From Chloroflexota bacterium (lineage in GTDB: Bacteria > Chloroflexota > Limnocylindria > P2-11E): a stretch of DNA of 58,651 nucleotides. Made by a program: the position numbers and the translations under genes. Of this stretch, positions 13,042 through 58,651 are shown one piece after another; the stretch's first letter is position 1; each line of letters opens with the position of its first letter. Under the pieces are notes generated by a model, which saw only the letters and a list, made by a program, of their open reading frames with translations, had not been told where the DNA came from and ran no database searches. The DNA lies in contig JAGWSB010000003.1 of NCBI GenBank assembly GCA_028876375.1, positions 1-58,651 on the forward strand, in the 5' to 3' direction.

Positions 13042-13457
13042 CCTCCGACGGCCGTCGCGAGGACGCCGTTGACGAACTTCGCCGACGCCTCGGAGCCGAA
13101 CAGCTTCGCCAGCTCGACGGCCTCGTCGATGATCACGCTGGCCGGCGCGTCGCCCGCGTAGCGCAGCTCGTACAGCGCGATGCGCAGGACGTTGCGGTCG
13201 ATGCGCGGCATCTGGTCGATGGGGAACTCCGGCGCGAGCTCGGCGATCTCCTCGTCGAGCTCCTTGCGGTGGTCGAGGACGCCGCGCACGATGTCCCACG
13301 CGAACGCGCCCGCCTGCTCGTTGAGGCCGGCGCGGAAGACGCCGCGCTCCCACGTCGCCTGCGCGTCGGCGCCGCGATTGAGGTCGACCTCGAAGAGGGT
13401 CTGCAGCGCGAGGCGGCGCGCGGGATGGCGCCCGCCGCGCGGAGGCCGCTGCTTCAC
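13038..13457 (-). CDS. nusB: Transcription antitermination factor NusB
   Basis: RHPARRLALQTLFEVD...IDRNVLRIALYEL...VIIDEAVELAKLFG...KFVNGVL; GTGA overlap with plsX. Confidence 0.95.
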   Translation of the reverse strand: MKQRPPRGGRHPARRLALQTLFEVDLNRGADAQATWERGVFRAGLNEQAGAFAWDIVRGVLDHRKELDEEIAELAPEFPIDQMPRIDRNVLRIALYELRYAGDAPASVIIDEAVELAKLFGSEASAKFVNGVLATAVGG

Positions 13458-14419
13458 GCGGCGACGCCGAGGGCGGCGATGAGCCCCGACGCGATCGACC
13501 GCTCCGCGACGTCGATCGCGAGCTTGAGCATCCGCGCGCGCGCGCGGCCGTGCGTGACGACGGACACGCCGTTCACGCCCAGGAGCGGGGCCGAGACGTA
13601 CGGCTCGTAGTCCATGCGCGCGCGGAAGCGGCGGATGCCCGGGAGCGCGACGAGCGCGGCGACCTTCCCGCCCGCGCCGCCGAAGATGTCGCGGCGGATC
13701 CCCTCGGTCATGACGTCGAGGACGCCCTCCATCGCTTTCGCGACGGTGTTCCCGGTGAAGCCGTCGGTGACGACGATGTCCGTCGTGCCGTGGAGGATGT
13801 CGCGCCCCTCGACGTTGCCGTAGAAGCGGATGTCGGCCGCGCCGCGGAGCAGCTCGTGCGCCTCGAGCTGAATGCGTCCGCCCTTCTCCGGCTCCTCGCC
13901 GACGTTGAGGAGCCCGACGCTCGGGCTCGGGACGCCGTGGACGCGCTCCATGAAGCGCGACGCCATGCGCGCGAACTGGAGGATGTTCTGCGCCGTCGCG
14001 TCCATCGTCGCGCCGGCGTCGAGGAGGCAGGCGGGGCCGCCCTTCGTCGTCGGCAGCATCCCGCACAGCGCCGGGCGGTCGATGCCGCGCACGCGGCCGA
14101 GGATCAGGAGCGCCGCGGCCATCGTCGCGCCGGTGTTGCCCGCCGACACGACGCCGTCCGCCTTGCCCTCGCGAACGAGGCGCGTCGCGACGGCGATCGA
14201 CGTGTCGCCCCGCCGGCGCAGCGCCGCCCCGGGGTGCTCGCCCATCTCGACCACCTCGGTCGCGGGCTCGACGCCGATCCCGTCGGAGGCGTGGAGGCGC
14301 GCGGGGTCGCCGACGAGGACGATCTCGGCCGCGCCGCCCGACGCCCGGTACAACAGCGCGCCCCGGACGATCTCGTCCGGGGCGTGGTCGCCACCCATGG
14401 CGTCGACGGCGATGCGCAT
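13454..14419 (-). CDS. plsX: Phosphate acyltransferase PlsX
   Basis: MRIAVDAMGGDHAP, VSAGNTGA, IDRPAL, LLNVGEEPEKG, DIVVTDGFTGN. Confidence 0.96.
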   Translation of the reverse strand: MRIAVDAMGGDHAPDEIVRGALLYRASGGAAEIVLVGDPARLHASDGIGVEPATEVVEMGEHPGAALRRRGDTSIAVATRLVREGKADGVVSAGNTGATMAAALLILGRVRGIDRPALCGMLPTTKGGPACLLDAGATMDATAQNILQFARMASRFMERVHGVPSPSVGLLNVGEEPEKGGRIQLEAHELLRGAADIRFYGNVEGRDILHGTTDIVVTDGFTGNTVAKAMEGVLDVMTEGIRRDIFGGAGGKVAALVALPGIRRFRARMDYEPYVSAPLLGVNGVSVVTHGRARARMLKLAIDVAERSIASGLIAALGVAA

Positions 14420-19938: not shown

Positions 19939-19986
19939 CGATGGACCCTAGCACAGCAGCATCTCCCCAAAAGGAGCACGCCCTCG

Positions 19987-20199
19987 ATGCCACGCGCCTG
20001 CGCCATCTGCGGCAAGCAAGCCGCGCACGGCTCCAACGTCAGCCACTCCAAAGTCCACACGCATCGCCGCTTCGAGGTGAACTTGCACGCCGCCGTGGTC
20101 AAGGGCCAGAAGCTCCTCATCTGCACACGCTGCCGGCGCACGCTCACCAAGGACGCGCGCCTCGCGCAGAAGAAGGCGAAGGCCGCCCGCTCCCGGTAA
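19987..20199 (+). CDS. rpmB: 50S ribosomal protein L28 (Zn-binding type)
   Basis: MPRACAICGK...GSNVSHSKVHTHRRFEVNL...ICTRC; SD AAGGAG. Confidence 0.95.
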   Translation: MPRACAICGKQAAHGSNVSHSKVHTHRRFEVNLHAAVVKGQKLLICTRCRRTLTKDARLAQKKAKAARSR

Positions 20200-20206
20200 C
20201 GGCCGT

Positions 20207-21280
20207 CTACACCGCGGCCGCCGCGCGCCCCTCCGCGACCTTCAGCTGACCGCAGCCCGCCGCGATGTCCTGCCCTTTGCTGATGCGCACCGTGGCCGCG
20301 ATGCCGTGCCGCTCGAGGATCCCCGCGAAGCGCTCCATCTTCTCCGGCGACGGCCGCGCGAAGTCGCCCGCTCCCGGGTTCACCGGGATGAGGTTCACGT
20401 GGTACATCCCCGTACGGCCGAGCCCCGCGATCTTCCGCGCGAGCCGCTCGGCGTGCGCCGCGGAGTCGTTCACGCCGGCAAGGAGGATGTATTCGAAGGT
20501 GAGCCGCCTCTTCGTGCGCTCCACGTAGCGCGCGCACGCGGCGAGAAGCTCGTCCACGTCCCACTTCCGGCCGACCGGCATGATCCGCGTTCGTGTCGCG
20601 TCGTCGGCGGCGTGGAGCGAGACGGCGAGATTGATGGGGATGCCCTCCGCCGCCAGGTCGTCCATCTTCGGGACGATCCCGCACGTCGAGACCGTGATGC
20701 GCCGCGGGCTGATCCCGAACATGTCGACGTCCGTGAGCAGGCGCACGGAAGCCATGACCGGGGCGTAGTTGCGGAGCGGCTCGCCCATCCCCATGTAATC
20801 GACGTGCGAGACGCGCGCGTCGCGTGACCTCAGCTCACGCTGCCAGAAGCGCACCTGGTCGACGATCTCGCCGGCGGTGAGGTCGCGGATCCAGCCCATC
20901 TCTCCCGTCGCGCAGAACGCGCAGGCCATGGGGCATCCGACCTGCGACGAGATGCATACCGCGTCGCGCTCGCCGTGGTGCGGCATGAGCACCGTCTCGA
21001 CGTGATGTCCGTCGTGAAGGCGGAGGAGCGCCTTGCGCGTCTCGCCGTCCGCGCTGGCGATCTCGGTCTCGAGCTCGACCGACGACCAGCGGAACGCCTC
21101 CGCGAGCTTCGAGCGCAGCGCGAGCGGGAGGTCGGTGAGACCGCTCCAGTCGGCTGCCGCCGAGCGCGCGACGCTGCGGCGGATCTGGCGCGCGCGGTAG
21201 GGCGGCTCGCCGTGCTCGGCGAGCCAGCGCGCAAGCGTCTCGTCGCTGACGTCGGTGATGGAGGGTGGCGGCGCAGTCAC
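20207..21280 (-). CDS. rlmN: Dual-specificity RNA methyltransferase RlmN
   Basis: CISSQVGCPMACAFCATG, MGMGEP, LAVSLHA, FEYILL, DIAAGCGQL. Confidence 0.95.
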   Translation of the reverse strand: MTAPPPSITDVSDETLARWLAEHGEPPYRARQIRRSVARSAAADWSGLTDLPLALRSKLAEAFRWSSVELETEIASADGETRKALLRLHDGHHVETVLMPHHGERDAVCISSQVGCPMACAFCATGEMGWIRDLTAGEIVDQVRFWQRELRSRDARVSHVDYMGMGEPLRNYAPVMASVRLLTDVDMFGISPRRITVSTCGIVPKMDDLAAEGIPINLAVSLHAADDATRTRIMPVGRKWDVDELLAACARYVERTKRRLTFEYILLAGVNDSAAHAERLARKIAGLGRTGMYHVNLIPVNPGAGDFARPSPEKMERFAGILERHGIAATVRISKGQDIAAGCGQLKVAEGRAAAAV

Positions 21281-21365
21281 GTTCTCCAGCCTACGTGACG
21301 GGTCCGACGACAAGGAGAGAGCGCGCACCGCCTACCGCTCTTCGACGACCGCGCGAGAAGGGCCG

Positions 21366-22313
21366 CTAGCTCGGGAGGCGCGCCCCCTCGAGGTCGTGTA
21401 AGCCGCGCGCCCAATCCGCCCCGCTCATCGCGCGCTTTCCCGCCGGCTTCACCTCATCGAGGCGCAGCCACCCCGCGCCGGCCGCGACGTGGGGCACGCC
21501 AGCGCGCAGCGACAAGACGCCGTGCTCCGCGGGCGGACCTCCGGCCACGCTCACGCGCAGCACGCCGATCCGCTGCCCGCGGAACGTGGTGAAGGCGCCC
21601 GGGTCCGGCGTGTAGGCCCGCACGACGCGCTCGAGCTCCTCGGCCGGACGTCCCAGGTCCAGCTCGCCGCCCTTGGGGTCCAGCTTCGGCGCCCAGGTGA
21701 CCCGCGCTGGATCCTGCGGCACAGGCGAGGCCTCTCCCCGCAGGTACGGCAGCAGCTCGCGCTCGAGCAGCCGCGCTCCGAGCTCGGCCAGCCTCGCCTC
21801 GAGCTCGCCTGTCGTCTCGGCCGCGACCGCGACCTCCGCCTGCGCGACGATCGCGCCGGCGTCGAGATCGACCGTCCCCTCCATGAGCGTCACGCCCGTC
21901 CGCGTGTCGCCGGCGAGGATCGCGTGCGCCACCGGCTCGGCCCCGCGCCACCGCGGCAGGAGCGAGGGGTGGACGTTGAGGGCGCGGCCTGTGGCGGCGT
22001 CGAGGAGGGCCTTCGGCACGAGGTTCCCGTACGCGGCCCACACGAGCGCGTGGGGCCGGAGGTCGATGGCCTCGCGCAGCGCGCCGCCGCGCAGCCGCGC
22101 CGGCTGCCGCACCGGGATGCCGAGTGCGACGGCGCGCTCCTTGACCGGCGGCGCGGTGATGCGTCCGCGGTGGCCCGGACGGTCGGGCCGCGTGACGACG
22201 CCGACGAGGTCGATCTCGCCGCGGTCGCGCAGGCGGGCGAGGGCGTCGAGCGAAGGGACGGCGAAGGCCGGAGTGCCGAGGAACACGACGCGCGGGGTAC
22301 CGCTCGCGCTTAC
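21366..22313 (-). CDS. fmt: Methionyl-tRNA formyltransferase (start codon ambiguous)
   Basis: RVVFLGTPAFA, AAYGNLVP, NVHPSLLPRWRGAEP, LDAG, EVKPAGKRAM; GTA at 22313 or GTG at 22286. Confidence 0.93.
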   Translation of the reverse strand, partial: VSASGTPRVVFLGTPAFAVPSLDALARLRDRGEIDLVGVVTRPDRPGHRGRITAPPVKERAVALGIPVRQPARLRGGALREAIDLRPHALVWAAYGNLVPKALLDAATGRALNVHPSLLPRWRGAEPVAHAILAGDTRTGVTLMEGTVDLDAGAIVAQAEVAVAAETTGELEARLAELGARLLERELLPYLRGEASPVPQDPARVTWAPKLDPKGGELDLGRPAEELERVVRAYTPDPGAFTTFRGQRIGVLRVSVAGGPPAEHGVLSLRAGVPHVAAGAGWLRLDEVKPAGKRAMSGADWARGLHDLEGARLPS

Positions 22314-45038: not shown

Positions 45039-46019
45039 CTAGCCTCGCGCTCCCGCGTACACCGGCGTCACCCACGAGCGATAGCGCGGCTCATCGCCGT
45101 GGACCGCCTTGAAGTACACGTCGCGGATGCGCTTCGTGATCGGTCCGAGCGCTCCGTCGCCGATCGCGCGGTGGTCGATGCTCTCGATGTAGTTCAGCTG
45201 CGTCCCGGTGCCGCAGAGGAACGCCTCGTCGGAGATGTAGAGCTCGGTCCGGTCGACCGTGCGCACCTGGACCGGGATGCCCTCGTCGTGCGCGATGCGC
45301 ATGAGGCTCGAGCGAACGATGCCCTCGAGGATGTTGTCCGTACCCGGAGGCGTGATGAGCGTGCCGTCGCGCACGATGAACAGGTTCTCCGCGCTGCCCT
45401 CGGACACGCTCCCGTCGGCGTTGAGGACGATCGCCTCGTCGTAGCCGGCCTCGACGGCCTCCGTCTTGGCCAGCGCCGCGTTGACGTACGCGCCCGTCAG
45501 CTTGCTGCGCGCGGGGATCGCGTTGTCGTCGGTCCGTCGCCACGACGAGACGCCGCAGCGGACACCGCGGTCGATGTCGAGGTACGTCCCGAAGGGGATG
45601 GCGAACACGGTGAAGGAGTCCTCGAGGTCGTGGAGGCGTACGCCGATGACCTCGCTGCGCTTGAAGGCGATCGGCCGGATGTACGCGTCCTCTTTGTAGC
45701 CCGAGCGCCGCAGCACCTCGAGCGTGATCTCCGACAGCTCGTCCACGCTCTGCGGCAGCGAGATGCGCATGATCCGGCACGACCGGTGGATCCGCTCGAA
45801 GTGCTCGCGCAGGTGGAGCACGTACAGCTGGGTCTCCGCCGCGTTCCAGTAGGCGCGGATCCCTTCGAACACGCCGGTCCCGTAGTTGAACGCGTGGGTC
45901 ATGACGCTGACCTTCGCGTCCTTGAGCGGGACGAACCTCCCGTCGAGGTAGGCCCATGCGCTTTCGGAGGCGGTCCCCTGCTTCGGCCTCGCGGCTGGAC
46001 GCTCGAGCTCCTTGACCAT
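45039..46019 (-). CDS. ilvE: Branched-chain amino acid aminotransferase
   Basis: THAFNYGTGVFEGIRAY, YIRPI, SKLTGAYVN, EGSAENLF, ILEGIVR, FLCGTG. Confidence 0.93.
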   Translation of the reverse strand: MVKELERPAARPKQGTASESAWAYLDGRFVPLKDAKVSVMTHAFNYGTGVFEGIRAYWNAAETQLYVLHLREHFERIHRSCRIMRISLPQSVDELSEITLEVLRRSGYKEDAYIRPIAFKRSEVIGVRLHDLEDSFTVFAIPFGTYLDIDRGVRCGVSSWRRTDDNAIPARSKLTGAYVNAALAKTEAVEAGYDEAIVLNADGSVSEGSAENLFIVRDGTLITPPGTDNILEGIVRSSLMRIAHDEGIPVQVRTVDRTELYISDEAFLCGTGTQLNYIESIDHRAIGDGALGPITKRIRDVYFKAVHGDEPRYRSWVTPVYAGARG

Positions 46020-46149
46020 TCCTCGCTCCTTATACCTGTCCGGTCGCACGGACCGCAGGTCCCGTGCCGCCCTTTTCAGATCGTGACATTAGCGCGTTCC
46101 GAAGGTCCCGAGCCTCTCGACGAATGCTGGAACGGACAGGGCCGAGCAG

Positions 46150-46175
46150 TACCATCCCGCCGGCTGGTCTGACCA
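46150..46175 (+). promoter_or_regulatory. oxlT promoter -10 (TACCAT) and FadR-type operator TGGTCTGACCA
   Basis: TACCAT 46150-46155; TGGT-CTG-ACCA 46165-46175 matches the TGGT-N3-ACCA FadR-subfamily consensus. Confidence 0.7.
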
Positions 46176-46237: not shown

Positions 46238-47809
46238 GTGAGTTCCGCGACCACCGCGGCACCCATCAGCGAACGCGAGGACCTGCTTCAGAACCGTTGG
46301 CTCATCCTCGTGGCGGGCATCGTCTGCATGATCGCGATCGCGAACTACCAGTACGGGTGGACGCTCTTCGTGACCCCGCTCCAGAAGGCTCTCCACGCGA
46401 ACAGCGCGGCACCGATCCAGGTCGCGTTCAGCGTCTTCGTGCTCCTCGAAACGTGGCTCGTCCCCTTCGAGGGCTGGCTCGTGGACAAGTTCGGCCCTCG
46501 GAACCTCGTCCTGATCGGCGGCATCCTCGCCGGCGCGGGCTGGTACTTCTCCGGCAGCGCGACGACGCTCACGCAGCTCTACCTGGCATACGCGCTCTCC
46601 GGCGTCGGAGCCGGCATCGTCTACGGAACGTCGGTCGGGAACGGGCTCAAGTGGTTCCCCGACCGCCGCGGGCTGGCCGCGGGCCTCACCGCGATGGGAT
46701 TCGGCGCCGGCGCCGCTCTCACCGTGCTGCCGATCCAGAGCATGATCAGCAGCGCCGGCTATCAGGCGACGTTCCAGCAGTGGGGGATCATGCAAGGGAT
46801 CGTCGTCGTCATCGCCGCGCTCTTCCTCAAGGCACCGCCGAAGGGCTGGCTCCCCCGGACCTGGACGCTCGAGGCGGCCGCCAACGAGGTCCGCAAGCGC
46901 CAGACCGCGCTCGACTTCACGCCGGGCGAGATGGCGGCGACGAAGCAGTTCTGGATCCTCTACGTCATGATGACCTTGGTCGCGACCGGCGGCCTCATGG
47001 CGACCGCTCAGATCGGTCCCATGGCCGCGAGCTTCAAGGTCGACAAGTTCCCCATCTCCTTCCTCTGGATCCAGATGACCGCGCTCACCTTCGCGCTCTC
47101 GGCGAACAACGTCATCAACGGCGTGTGCCGTCCGTTCTGGGGCTGGGTCTCGGACCACATCGGCCGCGAGAGAACGATGTCGCTCGCCTTCGGCCTCGAG
47201 GGCCTGGCGATCACCCTCCTCATCCTCTCGCTCCAGCTCTTCAAGAGCCCCATCCTGTTCGTGGTCATGAGCGCGTTCAGCTTCTTCGGCTGGGCCGAGA
47301 TCTTCTCGCTCTTCCCCGCGACGGCGGGAGACTTCTTCGGCCGCAAGTACGCGACCACGAACTACGGCTTCCTCTACACGGCGAAGGGCACGGCCTCCGT
47401 CTTCGTGCCGATCGGCTCCGCGCTCGCCGCGGGTCAAGCGTTCGACTTCCGCGCCGACGTGCTCTTGCTCATCGGCGCGCTGCTGATCTTCTTCACGATG
47501 TTCCTCGCTCCGACGGCGCTGCGCCTCGCGCTCAGCCCGACCGTCCGTAACGCGCTCTTCGTGGTGGCCGGGGTGTTCCTCCTGTACGGGCTGGCCCTCA
47601 CGGTCGTCCCCACGATGTGGGCGCCGTTCGCGCTCAAGCCGGTCGCGCCGAACGTCGGCTGGGGCGGCGTGTTCGCGGTCGCCGTCGTCTTCGACTGGTG
47701 CGCCGCGATCTTCGCGTTCTTCATCCTGCGCCGGATGGCCATCCCGGCGGCGGGCACGCGGCCGAGCGTCGGCCGGGAGCCCGCGGTGGCGCCCGCGCCC
47801 GCCGACTGA
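46238..47809 (+). CDS. oxlT: Oxalate/formate antiporter family (OFA/OxlT-like) MFS transporter with extra TM hairpin
   Basis: NRWLILVAGIVCMIAIANYQYGWTLF, KWFPDRRGLAAG, NGVCRPFWGWVSDHIGRE, FGRKYATTNYGFLYTAKG; GTG 46238 after SD GGAGG. Confidence 0.82.
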   Translation: MSSATTAAPISEREDLLQNRWLILVAGIVCMIAIANYQYGWTLFVTPLQKALHANSAAPIQVAFSVFVLLETWLVPFEGWLVDKFGPRNLVLIGGILAGAGWYFSGSATTLTQLYLAYALSGVGAGIVYGTSVGNGLKWFPDRRGLAAGLTAMGFGAGAALTVLPIQSMISSAGYQATFQQWGIMQGIVVVIAALFLKAPPKGWLPRTWTLEAAANEVRKRQTALDFTPGEMAATKQFWILYVMMTLVATGGLMATAQIGPMAASFKVDKFPISFLWIQMTALTFALSANNVINGVCRPFWGWVSDHIGRERTMSLAFGLEGLAITLLILSLQLFKSPILFVVMSAFSFFGWAEIFSLFPATAGDFFGRKYATTNYGFLYTAKGTASVFVPIGSALAAGQAFDFRADVLLLIGALLIFFTMFLAPTALRLALSPTVRNALFVVAGVFLLYGLALTVVPTMWAPFALKPVAPNVGWGGVFAVAVVFDWCAAIFAFFILRRMAIPAAGTRPSVGREPAVAPAPAD

Positions 47810-49105: not shown

Positions 49106-50188
49106 ATGAAGCGTCTCCTCGCGTTCGCACTCATGACCATGACCGTCGCCGCCGCCTGCGGCGGCGGGGCCGGGACCGCGAGCCCGAGCCCCTCGGCGGC
49201 CGCGACCAGCGCGGCACCGAGCAAGACGGCCGCGCCGACGGCGGCGGCCGTCAAGGTCGGCCTCGTCACCGACGTCGGGGGCCTCAACGACAAGAGCTTC
49301 AACGCGCTGGCGAACCAGGGTCGCCTCGACGCCGAGAAGGACCTCAAGGTCCAGACGTCGGTCACCGAATCCAAGAAGCAGGAGGACTACGTCCCGAACC
49401 TGACCAACTACGCGCAGCAGAAGTACGACCTCGTCATCGCCGTCGGCTTCCTCATGACGAACGCCACGTGGAAGGTCGCGAAGCAGTTCCCCGACGTCAA
49501 GTTCGCGATCATCGACGGCGCTCCGGCGAACGACAAGGGCGACACCGAGAACCTGCCGAACGTCGCGAACCTGTTCTTCAAGGAGCAGGAGGCCGGATAC
49601 CTCGTCGGCGTCATCGCCGCGACGATGGCGAAGAACAAGGTGGGCAAAGCGACGCACAACACGGTGTGCTCGATGGGCGGCATCCCCATCCCGCCGGTCG
49701 ATCGCTACATCGCGGGCTACCAGGACGCGGTCAAGACCGTCAGCCCGACGACGACGATCCTCAACGGCTACAGCAATGACTTCGTCGACCAGGCCAAGGG
49801 CAAAGAGGTCGGGCTCAACCACATCAGCAAGAACTGCGACATCCTCTTCCAGGTCGCGGGCGCCAGCGGCCTCGGCTACATCCAGGCCGCGAAGGACAAG
49901 GGCGTCTACGCCATCGGCGTCGACGCCGACCAGGCCTACGTCGCCCCCGGAACGGTGCTCACGAGCGCGCTCAAGCGCGTCAACAAGGCGGTCTACGACA
50001 CCATCAAGGCCGTCGTGAACAAGACCTTCAAGGCCGGCGACAACTCCTTCAACGCGACGAACGACGGCGTCGGCTACGGCACGCTCGACCCGGCGGTCCC
50101 CGCCGACGCGAAGGCCGCCGCCGACAAGGCCCTCGCGGACATCAAGAGCGGGAAGATCACGCCCAAGGACGCGGTCCAGGTCAAGTAA
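49106..50188 (+). CDS. BMP-family ABC substrate-binding lipoprotein (nucleoside-type)
   Basis: Lipobox VAAAC, DVGGLNDKSFN, FKEQEAGYLVG, AGASGLG, IGVDADQ. Confidence 0.92.
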   Translation: MKRLLAFALMTMTVAAACGGGAGTASPSPSAAATSAAPSKTAAPTAAAVKVGLVTDVGGLNDKSFNALANQGRLDAEKDLKVQTSVTESKKQEDYVPNLTNYAQQKYDLVIAVGFLMTNATWKVAKQFPDVKFAIIDGAPANDKGDTENLPNVANLFFKEQEAGYLVGVIAATMAKNKVGKATHNTVCSMGGIPIPPVDRYIAGYQDAVKTVSPTTTILNGYSNDFVDQAKGKEVGLNHISKNCDILFQVAGASGLGYIQAAKDKGVYAIGVDADQAYVAPGTVLTSALKRVNKAVYDTIKAVVNKTFKAGDNSFNATNDGVGYGTLDPAVPADAKAAADKALADIKSGKITPKDAVQVK

Positions 50189-50192
50189 GGCC

Positions 50193-51323
50193 TTGACCGT
50201 CCACGCACAGACGTCACCGACGGGGCCGCCAGCGGCCCCGTCGGTGCGTCAACCGAGCTTCGACTGGACGCAGGGTCCCGCGATCCCGGTGGTGTCGGTC
50301 CTATTCGCGCTCGTGCTCGGCGGCCTCTTCGTGTGGATCAGCGGGCACGACCCCATCCAGGCGTACGCGGCGCTCTTCCGCGGCGCGTTCGGCAGTCCCT
50401 ACGACGTCAGCGAGACGCTCGTCATCGCCGTTCCCCTCCTGCTCGCCGGCCTCTCCGTCGCCGTCGCGTTCCGCGCCGGGCTCTTCAACATCGGCGCGCA
50501 GGGGCAGCTCCTCGTCGGCGCGGTCGCCGCGGGCTGGGTCGGCGCGCTGTGGCCCGACCTTCCCGGGATCCTCCTCCTCCCGCTCACCCTCGCCGCGGGC
50601 GTTCTCGGCGGCGCGGCCTACGGCGGGATAGCCGGGTGGCTGAAGGCCGCGCGCGGGGTGAACGAGGTGATCACGACGATCATGCAGAACTACACCATCG
50701 TCTTCGTCATGCACTGGCTGCTCCAGAACGGTCCGATGCAGGCGCCGAACGCGTTCGGCACGCCGGCGTCGGCGCCGATCGGCGCCGGCGCGATCCTCCC
50801 GATCGTCCTCCCCGACTTCCTCGTCCCCTCGTCGCGCCTCCACGCGGGGATCGTCCTCGCGCTCCTGGCGACGCTCGGCTTCTGGTTCCTGCTCTGGCGG
50901 ACCTCGCTCGGGTACGAGCTGCGCGCGGTGGGGCTCGGGATGCGCGCGGCGGCGCAGGCGGGGATCGACCCGCGGAAGCGGATGGTGATCGTGATGGCCA
51001 TCGCCGGCGGCTTCGCCGGCCTCGCGGGCATGATCCAGGTGAGCGGGCTCTTCCACCGCGTGTACGACGGGTTCTCCGCGGGCTTCGGCTTCGACGCCAT
51101 CGCGGTCGCGCTCCTCGGCAAGAACACCCCGGTGGGCGTCCTGCTCTCGGCGCTCCTCTTCGCCGCCTTCTCGCGCGGCGGGACGCTCATGCAGTCCGAC
51201 GCCGAGATCTCGTCCCACCTCGTCGAGATCGTCGAGGCCCTCGTGCTGTTCGTCATCGCCGCCGAGACCGTCGTGCGCGCCGTCGCGCGGCGCTGGGGCC
51301 GACCCGTCAAGGCGGCGAGCTAG
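50193..51323 (+). CDS. Nucleoside ABC transporter permease 1
   Basis: AFRAGLFNIGAQGQ, GVNEVITTIM, GFDAIAVALLG. Confidence 0.9.
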   Translation: MTVHAQTSPTGPPAAPSVRQPSFDWTQGPAIPVVSVLFALVLGGLFVWISGHDPIQAYAALFRGAFGSPYDVSETLVIAVPLLLAGLSVAVAFRAGLFNIGAQGQLLVGAVAAGWVGALWPDLPGILLLPLTLAAGVLGGAAYGGIAGWLKAARGVNEVITTIMQNYTIVFVMHWLLQNGPMQAPNAFGTPASAPIGAGAILPIVLPDFLVPSSRLHAGIVLALLATLGFWFLLWRTSLGYELRAVGLGMRAAAQAGIDPRKRMVIVMAIAGGFAGLAGMIQVSGLFHRVYDGFSAGFGFDAIAVALLGKNTPVGVLLSALLFAAFSRGGTLMQSDAEISSHLVEIVEALVLFVIAAETVVRAVARRWGRPVKAAS

Positions 51324-52262
51324 GTGGAGGTCCTCATCGGCGCGGGCGTCCTCGCCGCGACCATCCGCCTCGCCACGCCCGTCGCCCTCGCCGCGCTGGG
51401 CGGCGTCGTCACCGAGCGCTCCGGCGTCGTGAACATCGCGCTCGAGGGCTGCATGCTCGTCGGCGCCTTCTTCGGCGTGTTCGCCGCCGACAAGACCGGC
51501 AGCCTCCCCGCGGCGCTCGCGGTCGCGATCCTCGCGGGCCTCGCGCTCGCGGCGATGCACGCCGTCGCCGCGATCACGTTCCGCGCCGACCAGATCGTGA
51601 GCGGCATGGCGCTCAACATCCTGGCGCTCGGGCTCACCTCCTACCTCGACTACCAGCTGTACAGCAGCACCGGGACGCCGCCGACGATCCCGCTCGTGCC
51701 CAACGTCCACCTCGGCTTCCTGGAGAAGGTGCCCGTCCTCGGCGGCGCGGTCGGCGACCAGAGCGCGATCGTGTGGGTGACGCTCGCGATCGTCGTGTTC
51801 CTCCAGCTCTTCCTCTTCCGCACCGTCCCCGGCCTGCGCCTGCGCTCGGTCGGGGAGCACCCGCGGGCGGCCGACACGCTCGGCATCGACGTCCGCCGCA
51901 CGCGCTACTGGGCCGTCCTCGCGTCGGGCGCGCTCGCCGCGCTCGGCGGGGTGTACCTCTCGCTCTCGGTCGCCGGCTCCTTCAGCGACAACATGACGAA
52001 CGGCAAGGGGTTCATCGGGCTGGCCGCGATGATCTTCGGACGCTGGACGCCGCTCGGCGCTCTCGGCGCCGCGCTCGTCTTCGGCTACGGCGACGCGCTC
52101 TCCGTCTCGCTCCAGGGTGTCGAGGTCGCGGGCTTCGTCTTCCCCGTGCAGCTCCTCTCGACCATCCCCTATCTGCTCACCATCCTCGCCGTCGCCGGCT
52201 TCGTCGGCAGGTCGCGGATGCCGGCCGCCGACGGCCAGCCGTACGAGAGCGAAGGGCACTGA
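51324..52262 (+). CDS. Nucleoside ABC transporter permease 2
   Basis: ERSGVVNIALEG, GLRLRSVGEHP, GKGFIGLAAMIFGRW, TIPYLLT. Confidence 0.92.
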   Translation: MEVLIGAGVLAATIRLATPVALAALGGVVTERSGVVNIALEGCMLVGAFFGVFAADKTGSLPAALAVAILAGLALAAMHAVAAITFRADQIVSGMALNILALGLTSYLDYQLYSSTGTPPTIPLVPNVHLGFLEKVPVLGGAVGDQSAIVWVTLAIVVFLQLFLFRTVPGLRLRSVGEHPRAADTLGIDVRRTRYWAVLASGALAALGGVYLSLSVAGSFSDNMTNGKGFIGLAAMIFGRWTPLGALGAALVFGYGDALSVSLQGVEVAGFVFPVQLLSTIPYLLTILAVAGFVGRSRMPAADGQPYESEGH

Positions 52263-53779
52263 TGGACACGCCGATCGTCGAGATGGCCCGCATCAGCAAG
52301 CGGTTCGGCGATCTGCAGGCGCTCGCCGAGGTCGACCTCACCGTCCACAAGGGCGACATCCACGCGCTCGTGGGCGAGAACGGCGCGGGCAAGACGACGC
52401 TCATGAACATCCTCTACGGCCTCTACCGCCCGGACGCGGGGACCATCCGCGTGCGCGGCACGGAAGCGCACATCGCGGGGCCGCGCGACGCCATCGCGCT
52501 CGGGATCGGCATGATCCACCAGCATTTCATGCTCGTTCCGCCCCTCACCGTCGCCGAGAACGTCGTGCTCGGCGACGAGCGCGGCGGCCCGGTCCTCGAC
52601 ACGCGCGGCATCGAGGCGCGCGTCGCCGAGCTGGAGAAGCGATTCGGCATCCAGGCCGAACCCCGCGCGAAGATCGAGGACGTTCCGCTGGGGATCCAGC
52701 AGCGCGTCGAGATCCTCAAGGTCCTCTACCGCGGCAGCGAGATCCTCATCTTCGACGAGCCGACGGCCGTGCTCACGCCGCAGGAGGTCGACGATCTGTT
52801 CCACATCGTCCGTACGCTCCGCGACGAAGGAAAGACCGTGATCCTCATCACGCACAAGCTCCGCGAGGTGATGGCGGTCTCCGACCACGTCACGGTCCTG
52901 CGCGAAGGCCGCAACGCCGCCCACCTCGTCACGAAGGAGACGGACCCGAGGGCGATCGCGGTCGCGATGGTCGGGCGAGAGCTGCGCGACATCCGCGTCC
53001 GGCCGGGCAACGTCGGCCCGGCCGTGCTCGAGATCACGAGCCTCAGCGCCGAGTCCGACCGCGGTGGCCTCGCGCTGAAGGGCGTCGACGTCGAGGTCCA
53101 CGCCGGCGAGGTCGTGGGCATCGCCGGCGTCGGCGGGAACGGCCAGAGCGAGCTCGCGCAGTGCATCCTCGGGCTGCGCAAGGTCACCGGCGGTGTCATC
53201 AAGGTCGGCGGCAGCGACGTCGCCCACGACGATCCGCGCCGCACGCGACAGCGCGGCGTGGCCTACGTCCCCGAGGACCGTCGGGCGGAAGGCCTCGTGC
53301 TCCCGTTCACCCTCGCCGACAACTTCATCCTCGGCCGGCAGGACCAGCCGCCGTACGCGCGTCGCGGCATCCTCCAGGGCCGGGTCATCCGTCGCGAGGG
53401 CGAGCGCCTGGCCAAGGAGTTCGACGTGCGCCCGCCCGACCCCGACGTCGAGGTGGGAACGCTGTCGGGTGGGAACCAGCAGAAGGTCGTCCTCGGCCGC
53501 GAGATCTCCGAGTCTCCAAGGCTCATCGTCGCGAACCAGCCGACGCGCGGCCTCGACATCGCGGCGACGGAGTACGTCCACGAGCGCCTCCTCGAGCAGC
53601 GCTCGCGCGGCTGCGCGATCCTCCTCATCTCGAGCGAGCTCGACGAGATCCTCGACCTCTCCGATCGGATCGCGGTGATGTTCGAGGGTCGCATCGTCGC
53701 CGTCCTGCCGGCCGCCGAGGCCACCGAGGAGCGGCTGGGCCTCCTCATGGCCGGCCACGTCGAGGGGGTCCCGGCCTAA
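52262..53779 (+). CDS. Nucleoside/sugar ABC transporter ATPase (two NBDs)
   Basis: GENGAGKTT, FDEPTAVL, AGVGGNGQ, LSGGNQQK, NQPTRGLD. Confidence 0.94.
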   Translation: MDTPIVEMARISKRFGDLQALAEVDLTVHKGDIHALVGENGAGKTTLMNILYGLYRPDAGTIRVRGTEAHIAGPRDAIALGIGMIHQHFMLVPPLTVAENVVLGDERGGPVLDTRGIEARVAELEKRFGIQAEPRAKIEDVPLGIQQRVEILKVLYRGSEILIFDEPTAVLTPQEVDDLFHIVRTLRDEGKTVILITHKLREVMAVSDHVTVLREGRNAAHLVTKETDPRAIAVAMVGRELRDIRVRPGNVGPAVLEITSLSAESDRGGLALKGVDVEVHAGEVVGIAGVGGNGQSELAQCILGLRKVTGGVIKVGGSDVAHDDPRRTRQRGVAYVPEDRRAEGLVLPFTLADNFILGRQDQPPYARRGILQGRVIRREGERLAKEFDVRPPDPDVEVGTLSGGNQQKVVLGREISESPRLIVANQPTRGLDIAATEYVHERLLEQRSRGCAILLISSELDEILDLSDRIAVMFEGRIVAVLPAAEATEERLGLLMAGHVEGVPA

Positions 53780-53826: not shown

Positions 53827-53887
53827 TTGACCGTGGTCACCGCCCAACGTACCGTTCCCCGGTCGGGTGGTCAGGCCACCTGACCGG
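53827..53887 (+). promoter_or_regulatory. Sigma70 promoter and overlapping FadR-type operator palindrome
   Basis: TTGACC 53827-53832, 17-bp spacer, TACCGT 53850-53855; CCGGTCGGGTGG-TCAGG-CCACCTGACCGG 53859-53887 containing TGGTCAGGCCA 53868-53878. Confidence 0.78.
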
Positions 53888-53913
53888 AACCAGTGACGAA
53901 GGCGGGAGGTGCG

Positions 53914-54675
53914 ATGGCTCTCGTTCAGCCCGTCCGGCGTGACCGGCTCTATCAGGGCATCGTCGCGCAGATCGAGGGTCTCCTCGAGCGCGGCGAGCTG
54001 AAGGCGGGCGATCAGCTGCCGCCCGAGCGCCAGCTGGCGGAGCAGCTCCAGGTCAGCCGCGCGTCGGTGCGCGAAGCGCTCCGATCCCTCGAGCTCCTCG
54101 GGATCGTCGAGACGCACGCGGGCGGCGGAACGTTCGTGAGGCACGCCCAGCCCGACGACCTGGCGCGACCCCTCACCAGCCTCATCAGCCGCGGCCACAC
54201 CATCGCCGACGTCATCGACGTCCGCGGTCTGCTCGAGCCCGCCATCGCGGAGCGCGCCGCGCGCAACATCGCGCCCGCCGAGATCTCCGAGCTGCGCGAG
54301 ATCCTCGCCGCGCAGGAGAAGAAGGTCGCGGCCGGCGAGCCCTACGTCGAGGAGGACACGCGCTTCCACGAGCTCATCGGCCAGGCGGCGGGCAACGAGC
54401 TCCTGGTCACGGTCGTGGGGGTGATCTGGGACGTCCTCCGCTCCTCGCGTGAGCAGTGGCTGCAGAACGAGGACCGCGCCCATGCTTCGCTCGAGGCCCA
54501 TCGGCGGATCCTCGTCGCGCTCGAGAAGCACGAGCCCGCGGCCGCCAAGGCGGCGGCGGCGGACCACATCCGCGCCGTCGGGGAAGGGATCCTCCGCCTC
54601 CTCGGGGAGGACGGGGCATCCCGGCGGGCGCACCCGGGACGGACACACAAGGATCAGGAGGTGGACACGGCGTGA
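53914..54675 (+). CDS. FadR-subfamily GntR regulator (PdhR/LldR/GlcC-like)
   Basis: GDQLPPERQLAEQLQVSRASVREALRSL; FCD with DTRFH, H and H metal-type residues. Confidence 0.93.
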   Translation: MALVQPVRRDRLYQGIVAQIEGLLERGELKAGDQLPPERQLAEQLQVSRASVREALRSLELLGIVETHAGGGTFVRHAQPDDLARPLTSLISRGHTIADVIDVRGLLEPAIAERAARNIAPAEISELREILAAQEKKVAAGEPYVEEDTRFHELIGQAAGNELLVTVVGVIWDVLRSSREQWLQNEDRAHASLEAHRRILVALEKHEPAAAKAAAADHIRAVGEGILRLLGEDGASRRAHPGRTHKDQEVDTA

Positions 54676-55805
54676 CCCAAGCGACAGCAGCACCGCCACA
54701 GACCGCGGCGGCGACGGACATCACGATCGAGGTCGTCTACCGCGGGATCTTCCAGAAGACGCTCGCGCAGCGCATCACGCGCGGCGTCGTCCTGGCCGCC
54801 CGGCAGAAGGGACTGCCGGGGACCGCGTTCTCGCGCTACGGCGACTCGCCGGAGCGCAACGGCGTGCCCGCGAAGCAGTTCGCCGTCGTCGCCGTGAACG
54901 ACATCGAGCTCGAGGCCTCGATGGCGCGCTACGAGCCGGCCGTCGTGGACGTCTCGGTCGCCGTCGACGACACGCTCGTCAAGGGCGTCGAGTCGTGGGC
55001 CTGGTACGGGCGCCAGCCGATCTGGAAGCCCGTGCGCCCGAACGGCGTCGTCCTCGTGACCAGCGACAAGTCGCCCGACGAGATCGTCGCGCAGACGGAC
55101 AAGACGGACCGTCCCTACACGCTCGGCGTGGTCCCCGGCGGCGCGTCCTTCGCCGGACTGTGGGTCTACAAGGACGACCACACCGATTGGCGCGTCCTCG
55201 GCGCGCTGTCCAAGGTCCTTCCCGAGTGGCTTCCGCTCGAAGAGGTCAAGGCGCAGGTGCGGCGGCAGACCAAGGACGAGAACGCCGTCGCGTCCGTCCA
55301 GTCCGGCCACGACGCGACGAAGCTCCGCCAGGTCAAGGTCGGCGAGGGCACCGACGCGCACGAGAAGCTCGGCTTCACGAAGCCCGGCTGGACGACGATG
55401 CGCACCGGCGTCATCGTCGACGCGCGGAAGCCCGGCGAGCGCAATCCGCAGTACAAGCGCTACGCCACGCGCACCCAGCGTCCCGTCGTCAACTTCGACA
55501 CCTGCATCAAGTGCACGATGTGCTGGCTCGACTGCCCCGACGAGTGCTTCGAGGTGACGCCGAGCGGCCACTTCGAGGTCGTCTACGAGGCCTGCGTGGG
55601 CTGCGGCATCTGCGCGCAGGTGTGTCCGGTCAAGGACTGCATCGTCATGGTCGACGAGCTCAAGTTCGACTCCAACAAGCTCGTCTTCCCGGTATGGGAG
55701 AAGGACCGCAACACGTACAACGCGTGGTTCGAGAGGACGAGCGGCCGCTCGGCCGCGCCCCCCACGGGCGAGAAGGCCGCTGTCGCGGCGGGAGGTGACG
55801 AGTAA
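54672..55805 (+). CDS. 2-oxoacid:ferredoxin oxidoreductase gamma-delta fusion subunit, oxalate oxidoreductase delta-like
   Basis: N-terminal gamma-like domain (YGDSPERNGVP) plus TRTQRPV and two CxxCxxCxxxCP ferredoxin motifs (CIKCTMCWLDCP, CVGCGICAQVCP). Confidence 0.85.
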   Translation: MTQATAAPPQTAAATDITIEVVYRGIFQKTLAQRITRGVVLAARQKGLPGTAFSRYGDSPERNGVPAKQFAVVAVNDIELEASMARYEPAVVDVSVAVDDTLVKGVESWAWYGRQPIWKPVRPNGVVLVTSDKSPDEIVAQTDKTDRPYTLGVVPGGASFAGLWVYKDDHTDWRVLGALSKVLPEWLPLEEVKAQVRRQTKDENAVASVQSGHDATKLRQVKVGEGTDAHEKLGFTKPGWTTMRTGVIVDARKPGERNPQYKRYATRTQRPVVNFDTCIKCTMCWLDCPDECFEVTPSGHFEVVYEACVGCGICAQVCPVKDCIVMVDELKFDSNKLVFPVWEKDRNTYNAWFERTSGRSAAPPTGEKAAVAAGGDE

Positions 55806-57037
55806 TGGCTGTCGCCGTCAAGACCACGGAGACCAGCGACGTCCAGACCGAGCAGCTCATGACGGGCTGCGAGGCCATCGCCGAGGCGATCCGCCTCGCG
55901 GACGTCGACGTCATGGCCGCCTTCCCCATCCGGCCGTACGACACGGTCATGCAGGCCGCCGCGAAGCTCATCGCCAACGGCAAGCTGGACTGCGAGTACA
56001 TCGTCGCCGACGGCGAGCACAGCCAGTTCGAGATCGTGAAGCACGCCTGCGCCGTCGGCTCGCGCGTCTTCGTCGGCTCCTCGGGCGTCGGCTGGTTCTA
56101 CGCCTTCGAGGCCATCGCCGTCACCGCCGGCCTGCGCCTTCCGGTCGTCGCCATCTGCGGCAACCGCGCCCTCGACGACCCCGGCGCGTTCGGCACCGAG
56201 CACAACGACTCGCTCGCCGTCCGCGACCTCGGATGGCTGCTCCCGTGGGCCGAGACGGCGCAGGAGTGCCTCGACCTCGCGCTCATGGCGTGGCGCGTCG
56301 GCGAGGACAAGCGCGTCTCGCTGCCGGTCGCCATCGGCCTGGACGGCGGCTTCCTCACCCATTCCCAGCAGCTCGTGAGCGTCCCGACGAAGGCCGCCGC
56401 GGACGCCTACCTTCCGCGCTTCGACCTCGGCGACCGCCTCCTGCACCCCGACAACCCCATCACCATCGCGCCGCAGGTCGACCAGGACTGGCTCATGGAG
56501 ATCCGGCGTCAGAACGACGCGGCGATGCGCCGCGCGCTCGAGGTCATCGCCGAGGCGCACGCGGACCTCAAGAAGCTCTTCGGCCGCGGCGGCGACAGCC
56601 CGTTCCTCGACGAGTACATGACCGATGACGCCGACGTCGTGTTCTTCGGCCAGGGCACGCTCGCCCTGCCGATGAAGGTCGCCATCCGGCGCCTGCGCAA
56701 GCAGGGCCACAAGGTCGGACTCGTCCGGCTCAAGTGGTTCCGGCCCTTCCCGACCGACGAGGTCGTCAGGAGCCTCTCGCGCTTCAAGGCCGTCGGCATC
56801 GTGGACCGCGACTACAGCTTCGGCTCGCCGTACTACGGCGGCGTCCTCTACAACGAGGTGCGCTCCGCCCTGTACTCGCGCGACGAGCGTCCGACCATCG
56901 TCGGCTTCGTCGCCGGCCTCGGCGGGCGCGAGATCGACCAGACCATGGCCCAGGACATCTACGACAAGACGGCCGCCGCCGCGGCGGGCGGCCTGGCGGC
57001 CGGCGACCAGTGCCACTGGATCGGAGTTCGGGAGTGA
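55805..57037 (+). CDS. 2-oxoacid:ferredoxin oxidoreductase alpha subunit, oxalate oxidoreductase-like
   Basis: RLADVDV, FPIRPY, DGEHSQ, GSSGVG, NRALDDPGAFGTEH, RVGEDKRV, FRPFP, AGLGG. Confidence 0.9.
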   Translation: MAVAVKTTETSDVQTEQLMTGCEAIAEAIRLADVDVMAAFPIRPYDTVMQAAAKLIANGKLDCEYIVADGEHSQFEIVKHACAVGSRVFVGSSGVGWFYAFEAIAVTAGLRLPVVAICGNRALDDPGAFGTEHNDSLAVRDLGWLLPWAETAQECLDLALMAWRVGEDKRVSLPVAIGLDGGFLTHSQQLVSVPTKAAADAYLPRFDLGDRLLHPDNPITIAPQVDQDWLMEIRRQNDAAMRRALEVIAEAHADLKKLFGRGGDSPFLDEYMTDDADVVFFGQGTLALPMKVAIRRLRKQGHKVGLVRLKWFRPFPTDEVVRSLSRFKAVGIVDRDYSFGSPYYGGVLYNEVRSALYSRDERPTIVGFVAGLGGREIDQTMAQDIYDKTAAAAAGGLAAGDQCHWIGVRE

Positions 57038-57133
57038 GAACGAAGAGCGAGCGAGATCCGGCTTCGCCGGGCGAGCAAGCGACAAACGATGCACGCGGCG
57101 CAGCCGCGAGCCTGCACTAGGAGGGAGATGGAA

Positions 57134-58189
57134 ATGGCTGTGGAAGCACCGACCGGGACCGGCACCCTCCCCCAGATCAAGGGCGTCAAGGAGGTCCCCT
57201 ACGACGAGCTCTTCGTCTCCGGCCACCGCACGTGCCAGGGCTGCGAGTCGGCGCTCGTCATGCGTCACATGGTCAAGGCGTCGGGTCCGCGCACGATCGT
57301 GCTCGGCTCGACGGGCTGCATGTACGTCGCGAACACGACGTACTACTCGACCCCGTGGGTGGTGCCGTGGATGCACACCCAGCTGGGCGCGGCCGGATCG
57401 GCCGCGCTCGGGACCGCCGCGGGCCTCAAGGTCCTCATGCGCAAGGGCAAGCTCGCTCGCGAGAAGATCAACGTCATCGCGTTCTGCGGCGACGGCGGCG
57501 GAGCGGACATGGGGATCGGCGCGATCTCCGCGGCGCTGACGCACAAGGAGTACGACCTCCTCGTCCTCCTCTACGACAACGAGTCGTACGCGAACACCGA
57601 CATCCAGCTGTCGAGCCAGACGCCGTGGGGCGCGGTCACGACGTTCTCTCCGACCGGGAGCGAGCGCCGGATCATGCACACGCGCTGGAAGAAGAACGTC
57701 CCCGGCATGCTCGCGGCCGGCCACCCCGAGTCCCGCTACATCGCCGCGGGCTGCGCGGCCTACGCCGTCGACCTGATGAACAAGATCCGCAAGGCGCTCG
57801 AGGTCGGCGGTCCGACGTTCGTGCACACGCTCGACCCGTGCCCCAAGGGCTGGGACTACCACCCGCAGTACAGCCAGGAGCTCGGCCACCTCGCCGTCGA
57901 GGCGGGGATCTGGCCGCTCTACGAAGTGCTGGACGGCGTCGTGAACCTCACCGGCCCGACGCGGCAGATCGCCGAGGGCCGCAAGAAGCGCAAGCCCGTC
58001 GAGGACTACCTGCGCCGGCAGGGCCGCTTCGCGCACTTCACCACGGAGGACGTCGAGCACTTCCAGGCCGAGGTCGACAAGATGTGGGAGGAGTGGCTCA
58101 TCCCCGGCGTCATCCCGTTCACCATCCCGCAGAAGGACGTGACCCTCCTCAACATCGACAAGAAGAAGCCGCTGCACGCGACCGCCTGA
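57134..58189 (+). CDS. 2-oxoacid:ferredoxin oxidoreductase beta (TPP-binding) subunit, oxalate oxidoreductase-like
   Basis: GHRTCQGC, TGCMYVANT, TPP motif GDG...YDNESYANT, GHPE, PCPKGW. Confidence 0.9.
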   Translation: MAVEAPTGTGTLPQIKGVKEVPYDELFVSGHRTCQGCESALVMRHMVKASGPRTIVLGSTGCMYVANTTYYSTPWVVPWMHTQLGAAGSAALGTAAGLKVLMRKGKLAREKINVIAFCGDGGGADMGIGAISAALTHKEYDLLVLLYDNESYANTDIQLSSQTPWGAVTTFSPTGSERRIMHTRWKKNVPGMLAAGHPESRYIAAGCAAYAVDLMNKIRKALEVGGPTFVHTLDPCPKGWDYHPQYSQELGHLAVEAGIWPLYEVLDGVVNLTGPTRQIAEGRKKRKPVEDYLRRQGRFAHFTTEDVEHFQAEVDKMWEEWLIPGVIPFTIPQKDVTLLNIDKKKPLHATA

Positions 58190-58258: not shown

Positions 58259-58651
58259 CTACGACGACGGTGGCGGCGCGGCCGGAGGCGGAGGCGTTCC
58301 GCCGCCCGCGGGAGAGCCGCCCGCCGGCGCGGGAGCGCTGGGCGCCGGACGTGGGCCGGCGGAGTACGGCCGGTAGGGTGGACGCTCGGGACGGGGCGGC
58401 GGCGGGCCGCCCGCGAGCGCGCGGTCGCGCGCCGACATCATCCCGCGGATGTGCTCCGCGGTGTACGGCAGGAGCGCCATGTAGCGCGCGCGCTTGAGCG
58501 CGGTCGTGAGCATCCGCTGGTGCTTCGCGCAGGTGCCGCTCTTGCGGCGCGGCTCGATGCGCGCACGGTCGCTGAGGAATCGCTGGAGACGCGGACGGTC
58601 CTTGTAGTCGATGCGCTTGACCTTCTCGAGGCAGAACACGCAGACCTTGCG
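58259..58651 (-). CDS. rpsR: 30S ribosomal protein S18 (Zn-binding type), 5' end outside the window, Pro-rich C-terminal tail
   Basis: RKVCVFC...IDYKD...[21 protein letters not shown]...[11 protein letters not shown]. Confidence 0.95.

Follow-up and report, generated by a model that had tools for sequence, protein, structure and literature searches.

The 58,651-nucleotide window analyzed here comes from the genome assembly of a Chloroflexota bacterium in the Limnocylindria. It carries an operon predicted to encode a three-subunit 2-oxoacid:ferredoxin oxidoreductase (OFOR) of the oxalate oxidoreductase (OOR) type, which sequence comparison places in an uncharacterized clade that is sister to the clade of the Moorella thermoacetica OOR (MtOOR). 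The alpha subunit keeps both active-site arginines of MtOOR and has Ala in place of the Asp of the switch loop, with a new Asp three residues earlier. Judged from motif counts and a phylogenetic tree, this Ala/Asp pair is a fixed trait of a large clade and not a one-off. The loop change co-varies with a Gly-to-Asp substitution in the beta subunit, which is a new observation of this analysis.

Active-site residues of the alpha subunit

To our knowledge, the Moorella enzyme is the only OOR characterized so far. The “bait-and-switch” mechanism proposed for it rests on Arg31, Arg109, and a swinging Asp116. A sequence-only reading of the window, which set its motifs beside those of Moorella, had claimed that the alpha subunit retains both arginines, that Ala replaces the switch-loop Asp, and that a new Asp appears three residues earlier. 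We therefore compared the window protein with sequences from solved structures. Its best PDB match in phmmer was OOR subunit alpha, 5c4i_A (E=2.3e-99; 44% identity), which reads YPIRPY, with Arg31, and ADRTLDPPGDFGEEH, with Arg109, Pro113, and Asp116. The Moorella sequence and numbering used in that reading thus matched the crystal-structure sequence exactly. Read directly, the window protein has FPIRPY at residues 40 to 45 and NRALDDPGAFGTEH at residues 120 to 133. The alignment put Arg43 and Arg121 at Arg31 and Arg109, Ala128 at Asp116, and Asp125 at Pro113, which bears out the claims about all four residues. The position of Arg121 is invariant among the aligned relatives, and Asp124, which corresponds to MtOOR Asp112, is kept in both enzymes. 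Two findings that could have overturned the sequence-only reading were not made: the equivalent position holds Ala and not Asp, and PGAFG is not the ordinary motif of pyruvate enzymes, which read, for example, NRAVSAPINIWNDH or ARALSTHALSIFGDH.

The predicted structure agreed with the sequence match. The AlphaFold2 model of the alpha subunit (mean predicted local distance difference test [pLDDT] score of 83) had 5c4i_A as its top fold match, with TM-scores of 0.89 and 0.92, followed by the pyruvate:ferredoxin oxidoreductase (PFOR) of Methanosarcina. The loop of residues 121 to 130 was modeled with low confidence (pLDDT score of 59), which would be compatible with a mobile loop but also with the absence of the partner subunits and cofactor from the model.

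A sister clade with its own loop and beta-subunit motif

Searches of 5.8 billion proteins and 1.84 billion cluster representatives yielded thousands of relatives. In a joint alignment, the homologues with 60 to 100% identity all read YPIRPY (FPIRPY in the window protein and its closest relatives) and GNRALDDPGAFG[TVC]EHN, and the Moorella-type group reads YPIRPY and ADRTLDPPGDFG[SE]EH[TS]. We refer to the Moorella-type group as clade A and to the group that includes the window enzyme as clade B. A motif census, in MtOOR numbering, counted 124 sequences with Arg31/Asp113/Ala116 (clade B) and 117 with Arg31/Pro113/Asp116 (clade A); it found no mixed states. An assembly quirk was considered as the source of Ala128 and Asp125 and was rejected, since the clade-B motif is present in essentially all of the 60-to-100%-identity homologues.

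In a maximum-likelihood tree of 96 representatives, all sequences with Arg31 (YPIRP) fell into one clade with a Shimodaira-Hasegawa-like approximate likelihood ratio test (SH-aLRT) support of 96. Within it, clade A (support of 99) and clade B (100) were recovered separately and were joined with support of 92 to 96, and the window enzyme lay outside the clade that holds the characterized OOR. The single lineage with Asn116 (P0128, clade C) was sister to clade B (support of 94), and a divergent LPIRPT lineage (P0228) was basal among the Arg31 sequences. PFOR-type and 2-ketoisovalerate:ferredoxin oxidoreductase (VOR)-type representatives have Thr31, mostly Asn, Ser, or Gly at position 116, and never PGAFG. 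The basal P0228 lineage, at L086:4146-6563, has the loop GNRVLDQPGSFGPEMT and the beta motif NTN, and its locus adjoins an AAA ATPase gene.

Scores against curated families told the same story for all three subunits. The best hits for the three proteins, both in the PDB and among the NCBIfam models (NF045790-NF045792), were OOR alpha, beta, and delta, and every NCBIfam score was below its cutoff: 382.6 versus 500 bits for alpha, 343.5 versus 590 for beta (NF045792), and 95.7 versus 230 for delta (NF045790). As a control, the clade-A alpha subunit of locus L083 passed the OOR alpha cutoff (556.4 versus 500). Nor were the cutoffs reached for the next-best models, PorA (320.5 versus 550) and PorB (283.6 versus 405), or for the VorA-type model (232.5 versus 646). 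The proposal in the sequence-only reading that the enzyme represents a distinct OFOR subclass is thus supported by its place in a sister clade, by the OOR scores below cutoff in all three subunits, and by an invariant loop motif of its own.

Relatives were present in at least 590 stretches from GTDB species genomes. The hosts of the best 80 of these include Limnocylindria and other Chloroflexota, Dehalococcoidia, Rubrobacter, Armatimonadota, Nitrospinota, Binatia, Acidobacteriota, Methylomirabilota, Acetothermia, and Alpha- and Gammaproteobacteria. NCBI and JGI name clade-B proteins “pyruvate ferredoxin oxidoreductase (alpha subunit)”; the JGI label for clade A is “PFOR alpha/oxalate oxidoreductase alpha” and for clade B just “PFOR alpha.” A literature search for any account of clade B found no paper in the library searched.

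The beta subunit carries a second change that tracks the first. Alignment of the window protein placed Asn169 at MtOOR Asn143-beta, which lies within YDNESYANTGIQ, and at Asn996 of the Desulfovibrio africanus PFOR (DaPFOR). Asp171, encoded by GAC at 57599-57601 in the context YDNESYANTDIQ (NTDIQ), falls at MtOOR Gly145-beta and DaPFOR Gly998. All of the solved OOR and PFOR structures (MtOOR, DaPFOR, and the Methanosarcina acetivorans and Moorella PFORs) have NTG, and NTG(G/I)Q is common to the Methanosarcina, Desulfovibrio, and Moorella PFORs. Among beta subunits from related loci, 72 of the 73 from clade B have NTD. In clade A, NTG is found in all 117 beta subunits with a readable motif (of 120) and in 4 loci. 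The Asn116 lineage has NTG, and the basal lineage, with Ser116, has NTN. In every Arg31 lineage, therefore, alpha position 116, beta position 145, or both are polar or acidic; clade B is the only one whose alpha loop no longer holds such a residue and whose beta subunit has acquired an Asp.

The published account of the active site (PMC5020499) calls the YPIRP motif unique to MtOOR and describes the role of Arg31. In its treatment of DaPFOR, the R-group pocket consists of Leu121, Ala219, Ile843, Asn996, and Met1202; Asn996 shifts upon substrate binding, and its equivalent sets specificity in a Sulfolobus OFOR. Alpha position 116 is in the same loop as DaPFOR Leu121. Because the Leu121 loop and Asn996 line the R-group pocket, both changed positions lie in elements that shape the pocket region in which the second carboxylate of oxalate would lie. 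Beta Asp171, two residues from the pocket Asn, may be able to reach the substrate.

Other differences between clades A and B are also fixed. In the alpha subunit, they are T34D (beside YPIRPY), S64E, G68H, V85W, and D108N. In the beta subunit, the proximal-cluster motif (57230-57250, residues 48 to 54) is CQGCES in clade B versus CAGCGP in clade A (A25Q, G28E, and P29S), a change that could shift the potential of the proximal cluster. One relative, P0106, is a natural alpha-beta chimera.

Operon, regulator, and transporter

The genes are ordered gntR, delta (a gamma-delta fusion), alpha, and beta (Table 1), giving the three-subunit OFOR layout with fused gamma and delta that is found in OOR. 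The delta reading frame is open from 54456, and its likely start is the GTG at 54672, which overlaps the gntR stop (GTGA); the alpha start overlaps the delta stop (TAATG). For beta, the ATG at 57134, 9 nucleotides after an AGGAGG at 57119-57124, is the likelier start, and our beta residue numbers are counted from 57089. The delta protein aligns with 5c4i_B, the gamma-delta fusion subunit of OOR, over residues 15 to 313 and has two CxxCxxCxxxCP motifs, CIKCTMCWLDCP and CVGCGICAQVCP. The beta protein has an intact thiamine pyrophosphate (TPP)/Mg motif of the GDG...N type, GDGGGADMG...YDNESYANT, together with C-x2-C...C...C cysteines. The cysteine motifs for three [4Fe-4S] clusters are intact across beta and delta. 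Pfam recognizes the ferredoxin domain of delta alone; its gamma-like N-terminal domain (54672-55400) gave no match to POR (PF01558).

The core of this operon is conserved. In gene-order counts from open reading frame clustering of 81 loci, alpha was called in 78, with delta adjoining it in 74 of the 78 and beta in 71. In two clade-A loci (L083:8193-9998 and L082:8045-9884), the gene directly upstream of alpha encodes not an OOR delta but an NAD(P)-binding Fe-S flavoprotein resembling the small subunit of glutamate synthase (NF009410, 534 versus 516 bits), which hints that an environmental subgroup of the Moorella-type clade may hold an NAD(P)-linked OOR. Clade-B locus L074 has a similar flavoprotein gene after beta (12566-13975).

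The same genome has a second, canonical OFOR on contig C60 (about 19985-22200, minus strand) with FPITPS, the loop AARTVSGPLDIRGDHSD, and beta MNTGAQ. Its alpha and beta subunits are apparently fused in one frame, and a gamma/delta-like gene lies upstream.

We then examined regulatory sites. Of the 37 loci with an adjacent gntR in the same direction, 34 carry the palindrome TGGTC[AT]GACCA 3 to 92 bp ahead of that gene, and the density of the palindrome upstream of gntR is 3.7 per kb versus 0.26 per kb across the loci overall; a gntR homologue was detected by tblastn in 48 of the 80 related loci. In the window, the TGGTNNNACCA site occurs once, at 46165, and this is the single exact TGGTC[AT]GACCA in the whole 2.6-Mb assembly. 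By our estimate, about 0.7 exact sites would be expected by chance genome-wide, and the probability of one within 8 kb of the operon is about 0.004. The one-mismatch variant ahead of the window gntR agrees in position with the conserved site of the related loci. The best NCBIfam matches of the regulator were NanR, LldR, PdhR, and GlcC, all below cutoff (NanR was highest, with 126 versus 260 bits).

In two loci, a second exact TGGTCWGACCA (L015:2086 and L016:1772) lies directly upstream of BMP/PnrA-type ABC transporter genes that precede gntR-delta-alpha-beta, and the BMP-type transporter therefore seems to be part of the regulon in some Limnocylindria. The window copy of this transporter (49106-53779) has no matching operator in front. 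A wider regulon was considered and rejected: eight other one-mismatch sites in the genome adjoin unrelated genes (encoding a GGDEF/HD regulator, cytochrome bd, ribosome recycling factor, and others) and were taken as chance occurrences.

The exact operator faces a gene whose product, by score, is within the OxlT equivalog TIGR04259. Its reading frame is open from 46064, and the start given in Table 1 is that chosen in the sequence-only reading. The open reading frame is unusually long, with 581 residues from the first start, and has extra sequence beyond the end of the family-model match. Divergent from it is ilvE (45039-46049, minus strand), encoding a branched-chain aminotransferase that scores above cutoff, and the operator is in the intergenic region that the two genes share. 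A general link between ilvE and the operon was rejected, as the gene was seen in the window and in L020 alone. OxlT equivalogs are immediately upstream and co-directional in the alphaproteobacterial clade-B loci L065 (545 bits) and L074 (494 bits), and another (419 bits) is 2 kb upstream in the Asn116-lineage locus L085. An OxlT fragment is near clade-A locus L081. Five clade-B genomes have an OxlT, and in three of them the gene either adjoins the operon or lies no more than about 8 kb away. Neither oxalyl-CoA decarboxylase (Oxc) nor formyl-CoA transferase (Frc) was found above cutoff in the window genome. Because of the OxlT links, the operator, the lack of Oxc and Frc above cutoff, and the separate canonical OFOR on C60, we favor a small carboxylate, most likely oxalate, as the substrate to which the genomic context points.

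Beyond the operon, a gene for a ribosomal protein S18-like product (58259-58651, minus strand) with a long Pro/Ala/Gly-rich C-terminal tail runs off the end of the contig (C100), the whole of which is the window.

Table 1. Positions of operon genes, active-site codons, operator sites, and the transporter gene in the window
Feature	Position	Strand	Basis
OxlT-type (oxalate/formate antiporter family) major facilitator superfamily transporter	46238..47809	+	TIGR04259, 500.6 bits vs 335
Operator-like palindrome TGGTCTGACCA	46165..46175	.	Intergenic, between divergent ilvE and OxlT-like gene
Operator variant TGGTCAGGCCA, one mismatch, inside a longer palindrome directly upstream of gntR	53868..53878	.	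Sequence
GntR/FadR-family regulator (GntR helix-turn-helix and FCD domain), first gene of operon	53893..54675	+	Pfam PF00392, PF07729
Delta subunit: gamma-like domain III fused to 2x[4Fe-4S] ferredoxin domain	54672..55805	+	Match to 5c4i_B
Alpha subunit (domains I-II), 410 residues	55805..57037	+	Open reading frame list, direct reading, PDB and NCBIfam matches
Arg43 (= MtOOR Arg31), codon CGG, in FPIRP; Arg in place of the YPITP Thr	55931-55933	+	Sequence and phmmer alignment
Arg121 (= MtOOR Arg109 = DaPFOR Arg114), codon CGC; carboxylate-binding Arg by equivalence	56165-56167	+	Alignment
Asp125, codon GAC, at MtOOR Pro113 position; clade-specific new loop Asp	56177-56179	+	Alignment, motif census
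Ala128, codon GCG, at MtOOR switch-loop Asp116 position	56186-56188	+	Alignment, motif census
Beta subunit (TPP-binding domain VI, proximal [4Fe-4S] cluster)	57089..58189	+	Aligns to 5c4i_C; NCBIfam
Asn169-Thr170-Asp171 (NTD) of beta	57593..57601	+	Alignment to sequences of OOR/PFOR structures

Candidate reactions and comparison with known systems

The retained arginines and the altered loop could reflect an oxalate-oxidizing enzyme in which the acidic function has been re-sited to beta Asp171 and/or alpha Asp125, and we give about even weight to this proposal, whether the substrate is oxalate or a near-identical C2 dicarboxylate. Under such a mechanism, oxalate, or a small anionic 2-oxoacid much like it, would sit between Arg43 and Arg121 and be oxidized to CO2, with electrons passing via the clusters to ferredoxin. 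The negative charge that is swung in on Asp116 for decarboxylation in Moorella OOR would be supplied instead by beta Asp171, beside Asn169, and/or by alpha Asp125. The GntR/FCD protein would act as a repressor of both the operon and the OxlT-type transporter gene in this genome through TGGTCWGACCA.

Several points weigh against this proposal. We know of no study in which Asp116 of Moorella OOR was probed by mutagenesis, and the co-variation of Ala116 with beta Asp171 counts as one evolutionary event. With divergent ilvE on its other side, the 46165 operator may serve either gene. Co-occurrence with OxlT is not general, as the transporter is above cutoff in just 4 of 50 clade-B genomes. Across phyla, the operon is paired most often with TctCBA, a generic carboxylate uptake system, and in L015 and L016 the operator also precedes the BMP-type transporter genes. 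In a block of Dehalococcoidia loci, the operon is beside genes for a flavin mononucleotide (FMN) 2-hydroxyacid dehydrogenase/oxidase, a ThiO/glycine-oxidase-like flavin adenine dinucleotide (FAD) enzyme, family III coenzyme A (CoA)-transferases, and an ALS/Xsc-like TPP enzyme. In L041 and L047, the gene after beta is threonine-dehydratase-like. These alternative partners would fit other 2-oxoacids. Alternatively, then, an enzyme of the same clade and fold might have another physiological substrate, its pocket (Ala116, Asp113, and beta Asp145) having been retuned to another small polar or anionic 2-oxoacid such as glyoxylate (from glycolate or glycine), oxaloacetate, 2-oxobutyrate or pyruvate from amino-acid deamination, oxamate, or mesoxalate. 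The 46 clade-B genomes without an OxlT above cutoff are in keeping with this, as are the nearest named relatives of the regulator, which sense lactate, pyruvate, or glycolate (all matches far below cutoff). We regard another substrate as a serious possibility, if not a probable one: both oxalate-holding arginines of MtOOR are invariant, OxlT is near the operon in three of the five OxlT-bearing clade-B genomes and also in a clade-C and a clade-A locus, and the neighbor sets vary by lineage and are all below curated cutoffs, so none names a substrate. The Dehalococcoidia neighbors were also considered as oxalate-pathway genes and rejected for the same reason, all being far below the Oxc, Frc, and LldD cutoffs.

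The remaining alternatives fit the data less well. The loss of Asp116 might be functionally unimportant if OOR chemistry can do without the switch Asp; the beta Asp and alpha Asp125 would then be lineage-specific changes with no connection to it, and nothing would have been rewired. The three-position co-variation is indeed one split in the tree, and Asn116 with beta Gly in P0128 and Ser116 with beta Asn in P0228 indicate that position 116 is tolerant within the Arg31 clade. Yet within each clade, which covers several phyla and identities as low as about 60%, the three positions do not vary, and this favors selection over drift; in addition, the two sites are in substrate-pocket elements of DaPFOR, and NTG is otherwise kept from PFOR to OOR. 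We therefore consider a neutral change improbable. Least probable of all is that the enzyme is an ordinary PFOR or VOR, as the NCBI and JGI annotations have it. PorA and PorB are the next-best scoring models, and clade B retains PFOR-like residues that are altered in clade A, such as Asn108 and Ala110. However, the essential Thr of YPITP is replaced by Arg, the loop and NTD differ from those of all PFOR/VOR representatives and solved structures, and the PorA and PorB scores are below cutoff. In addition, the tree groups the enzyme with OOR and not with the YPITP enzymes, and a canonical FPITPS/NTG OFOR is already present on C60.

Clade B is a natural test of the OOR mechanism, in which both arginines are kept, the switch Asp is never present, and the new beta Asp nearly always is (72/73). 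It could reveal that the Asp is indispensable, that a residue elsewhere can assume its function, or that the remodeled pocket goes with a new substrate. If the charge has been relocated in an enzyme that oxidizes oxalate, one-carbon TPP chemistry would have at least two solutions, and the Moorella bait-and-switch would be only one of them. The substrate and the CoA independence of clade-B enzymes are predictions from sequence. A still broader role, which we hold to be less likely than not, would be that of a widespread and so far unrecognized CoA-free system for oxidizing oxalate (C2 acids), with hosts that are mostly aerobes of soil and water (Limnocylindria, Dehalococcoidia, Rubrobacter, Acidobacteriota, Methylomirabilota, and some Proteobacteria), and in this system the catalytic charge would have moved from a mobile alpha loop (Asp116) to a fixed Asp in the beta NTG motif. 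Oxalate is a major carbon flux in soils. Surveys of oxalate-turnover genes that rely on frc/oxc and Moorella-type OOR models would in that case miss a major route, and the involvement of abundant uncultured Chloroflexota and others would be masked by such marker-gene surveys and by “pyruvate ferredoxin oxidoreductase” names.

Among known systems, the regulator resembles FadR-subfamily GntR repressors of the LldR/PdhR/GlcC type (with TGGT-N3-ACCA operators) in its helix-turn-helix and FCD domains, its autoregulatory placement, and its palindromic TGGTCWGACCA, and it differs from them in scoring below every named equivalog cutoff. The PFORs of Methanosarcina acetivorans (9BT4, four subunits), Desulfovibrio africanus (1B0P, single chain), and Moorella (6CIN, single chain) share with the window enzyme the fold, the domain set, equivalents of Arg114/Arg109 and Asn996, and the cluster and TPP motifs. 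They require CoA and have the YPITP Thr, a loop reading APINIWNDH or THALSIFGDH, and NTG(G/I)Q, whereas the window enzyme has Arg, DDPGAFGTEH, and NTDIQ. The closest counterpart is Moorella OOR (EC 1.2.7.10; PDB 5C4I, 5EXD, and 5EXE; NF045790-NF045792), which is the top match in both sequence and fold and has the same three subunits, gamma-delta fusion, YPIRP-type Arg31, Arg109, Asp112, Gly/Pro-rich loop, and Asn143-beta. GntR/FCD regulators and, in places, OxlT-like genes are near the operons of its clade as they are in clade B. The window enzyme differs from it in having only 44% alpha identity, a sister-clade position, and scores below cutoff in all subunits; in Ala for Asp116, Asp for Pro113, and Asp for beta Gly145; in a delta subunit that is about 60 residues longer; and in the hosts of its clade, which are mostly aerobic soil and water bacteria and not acetogens.

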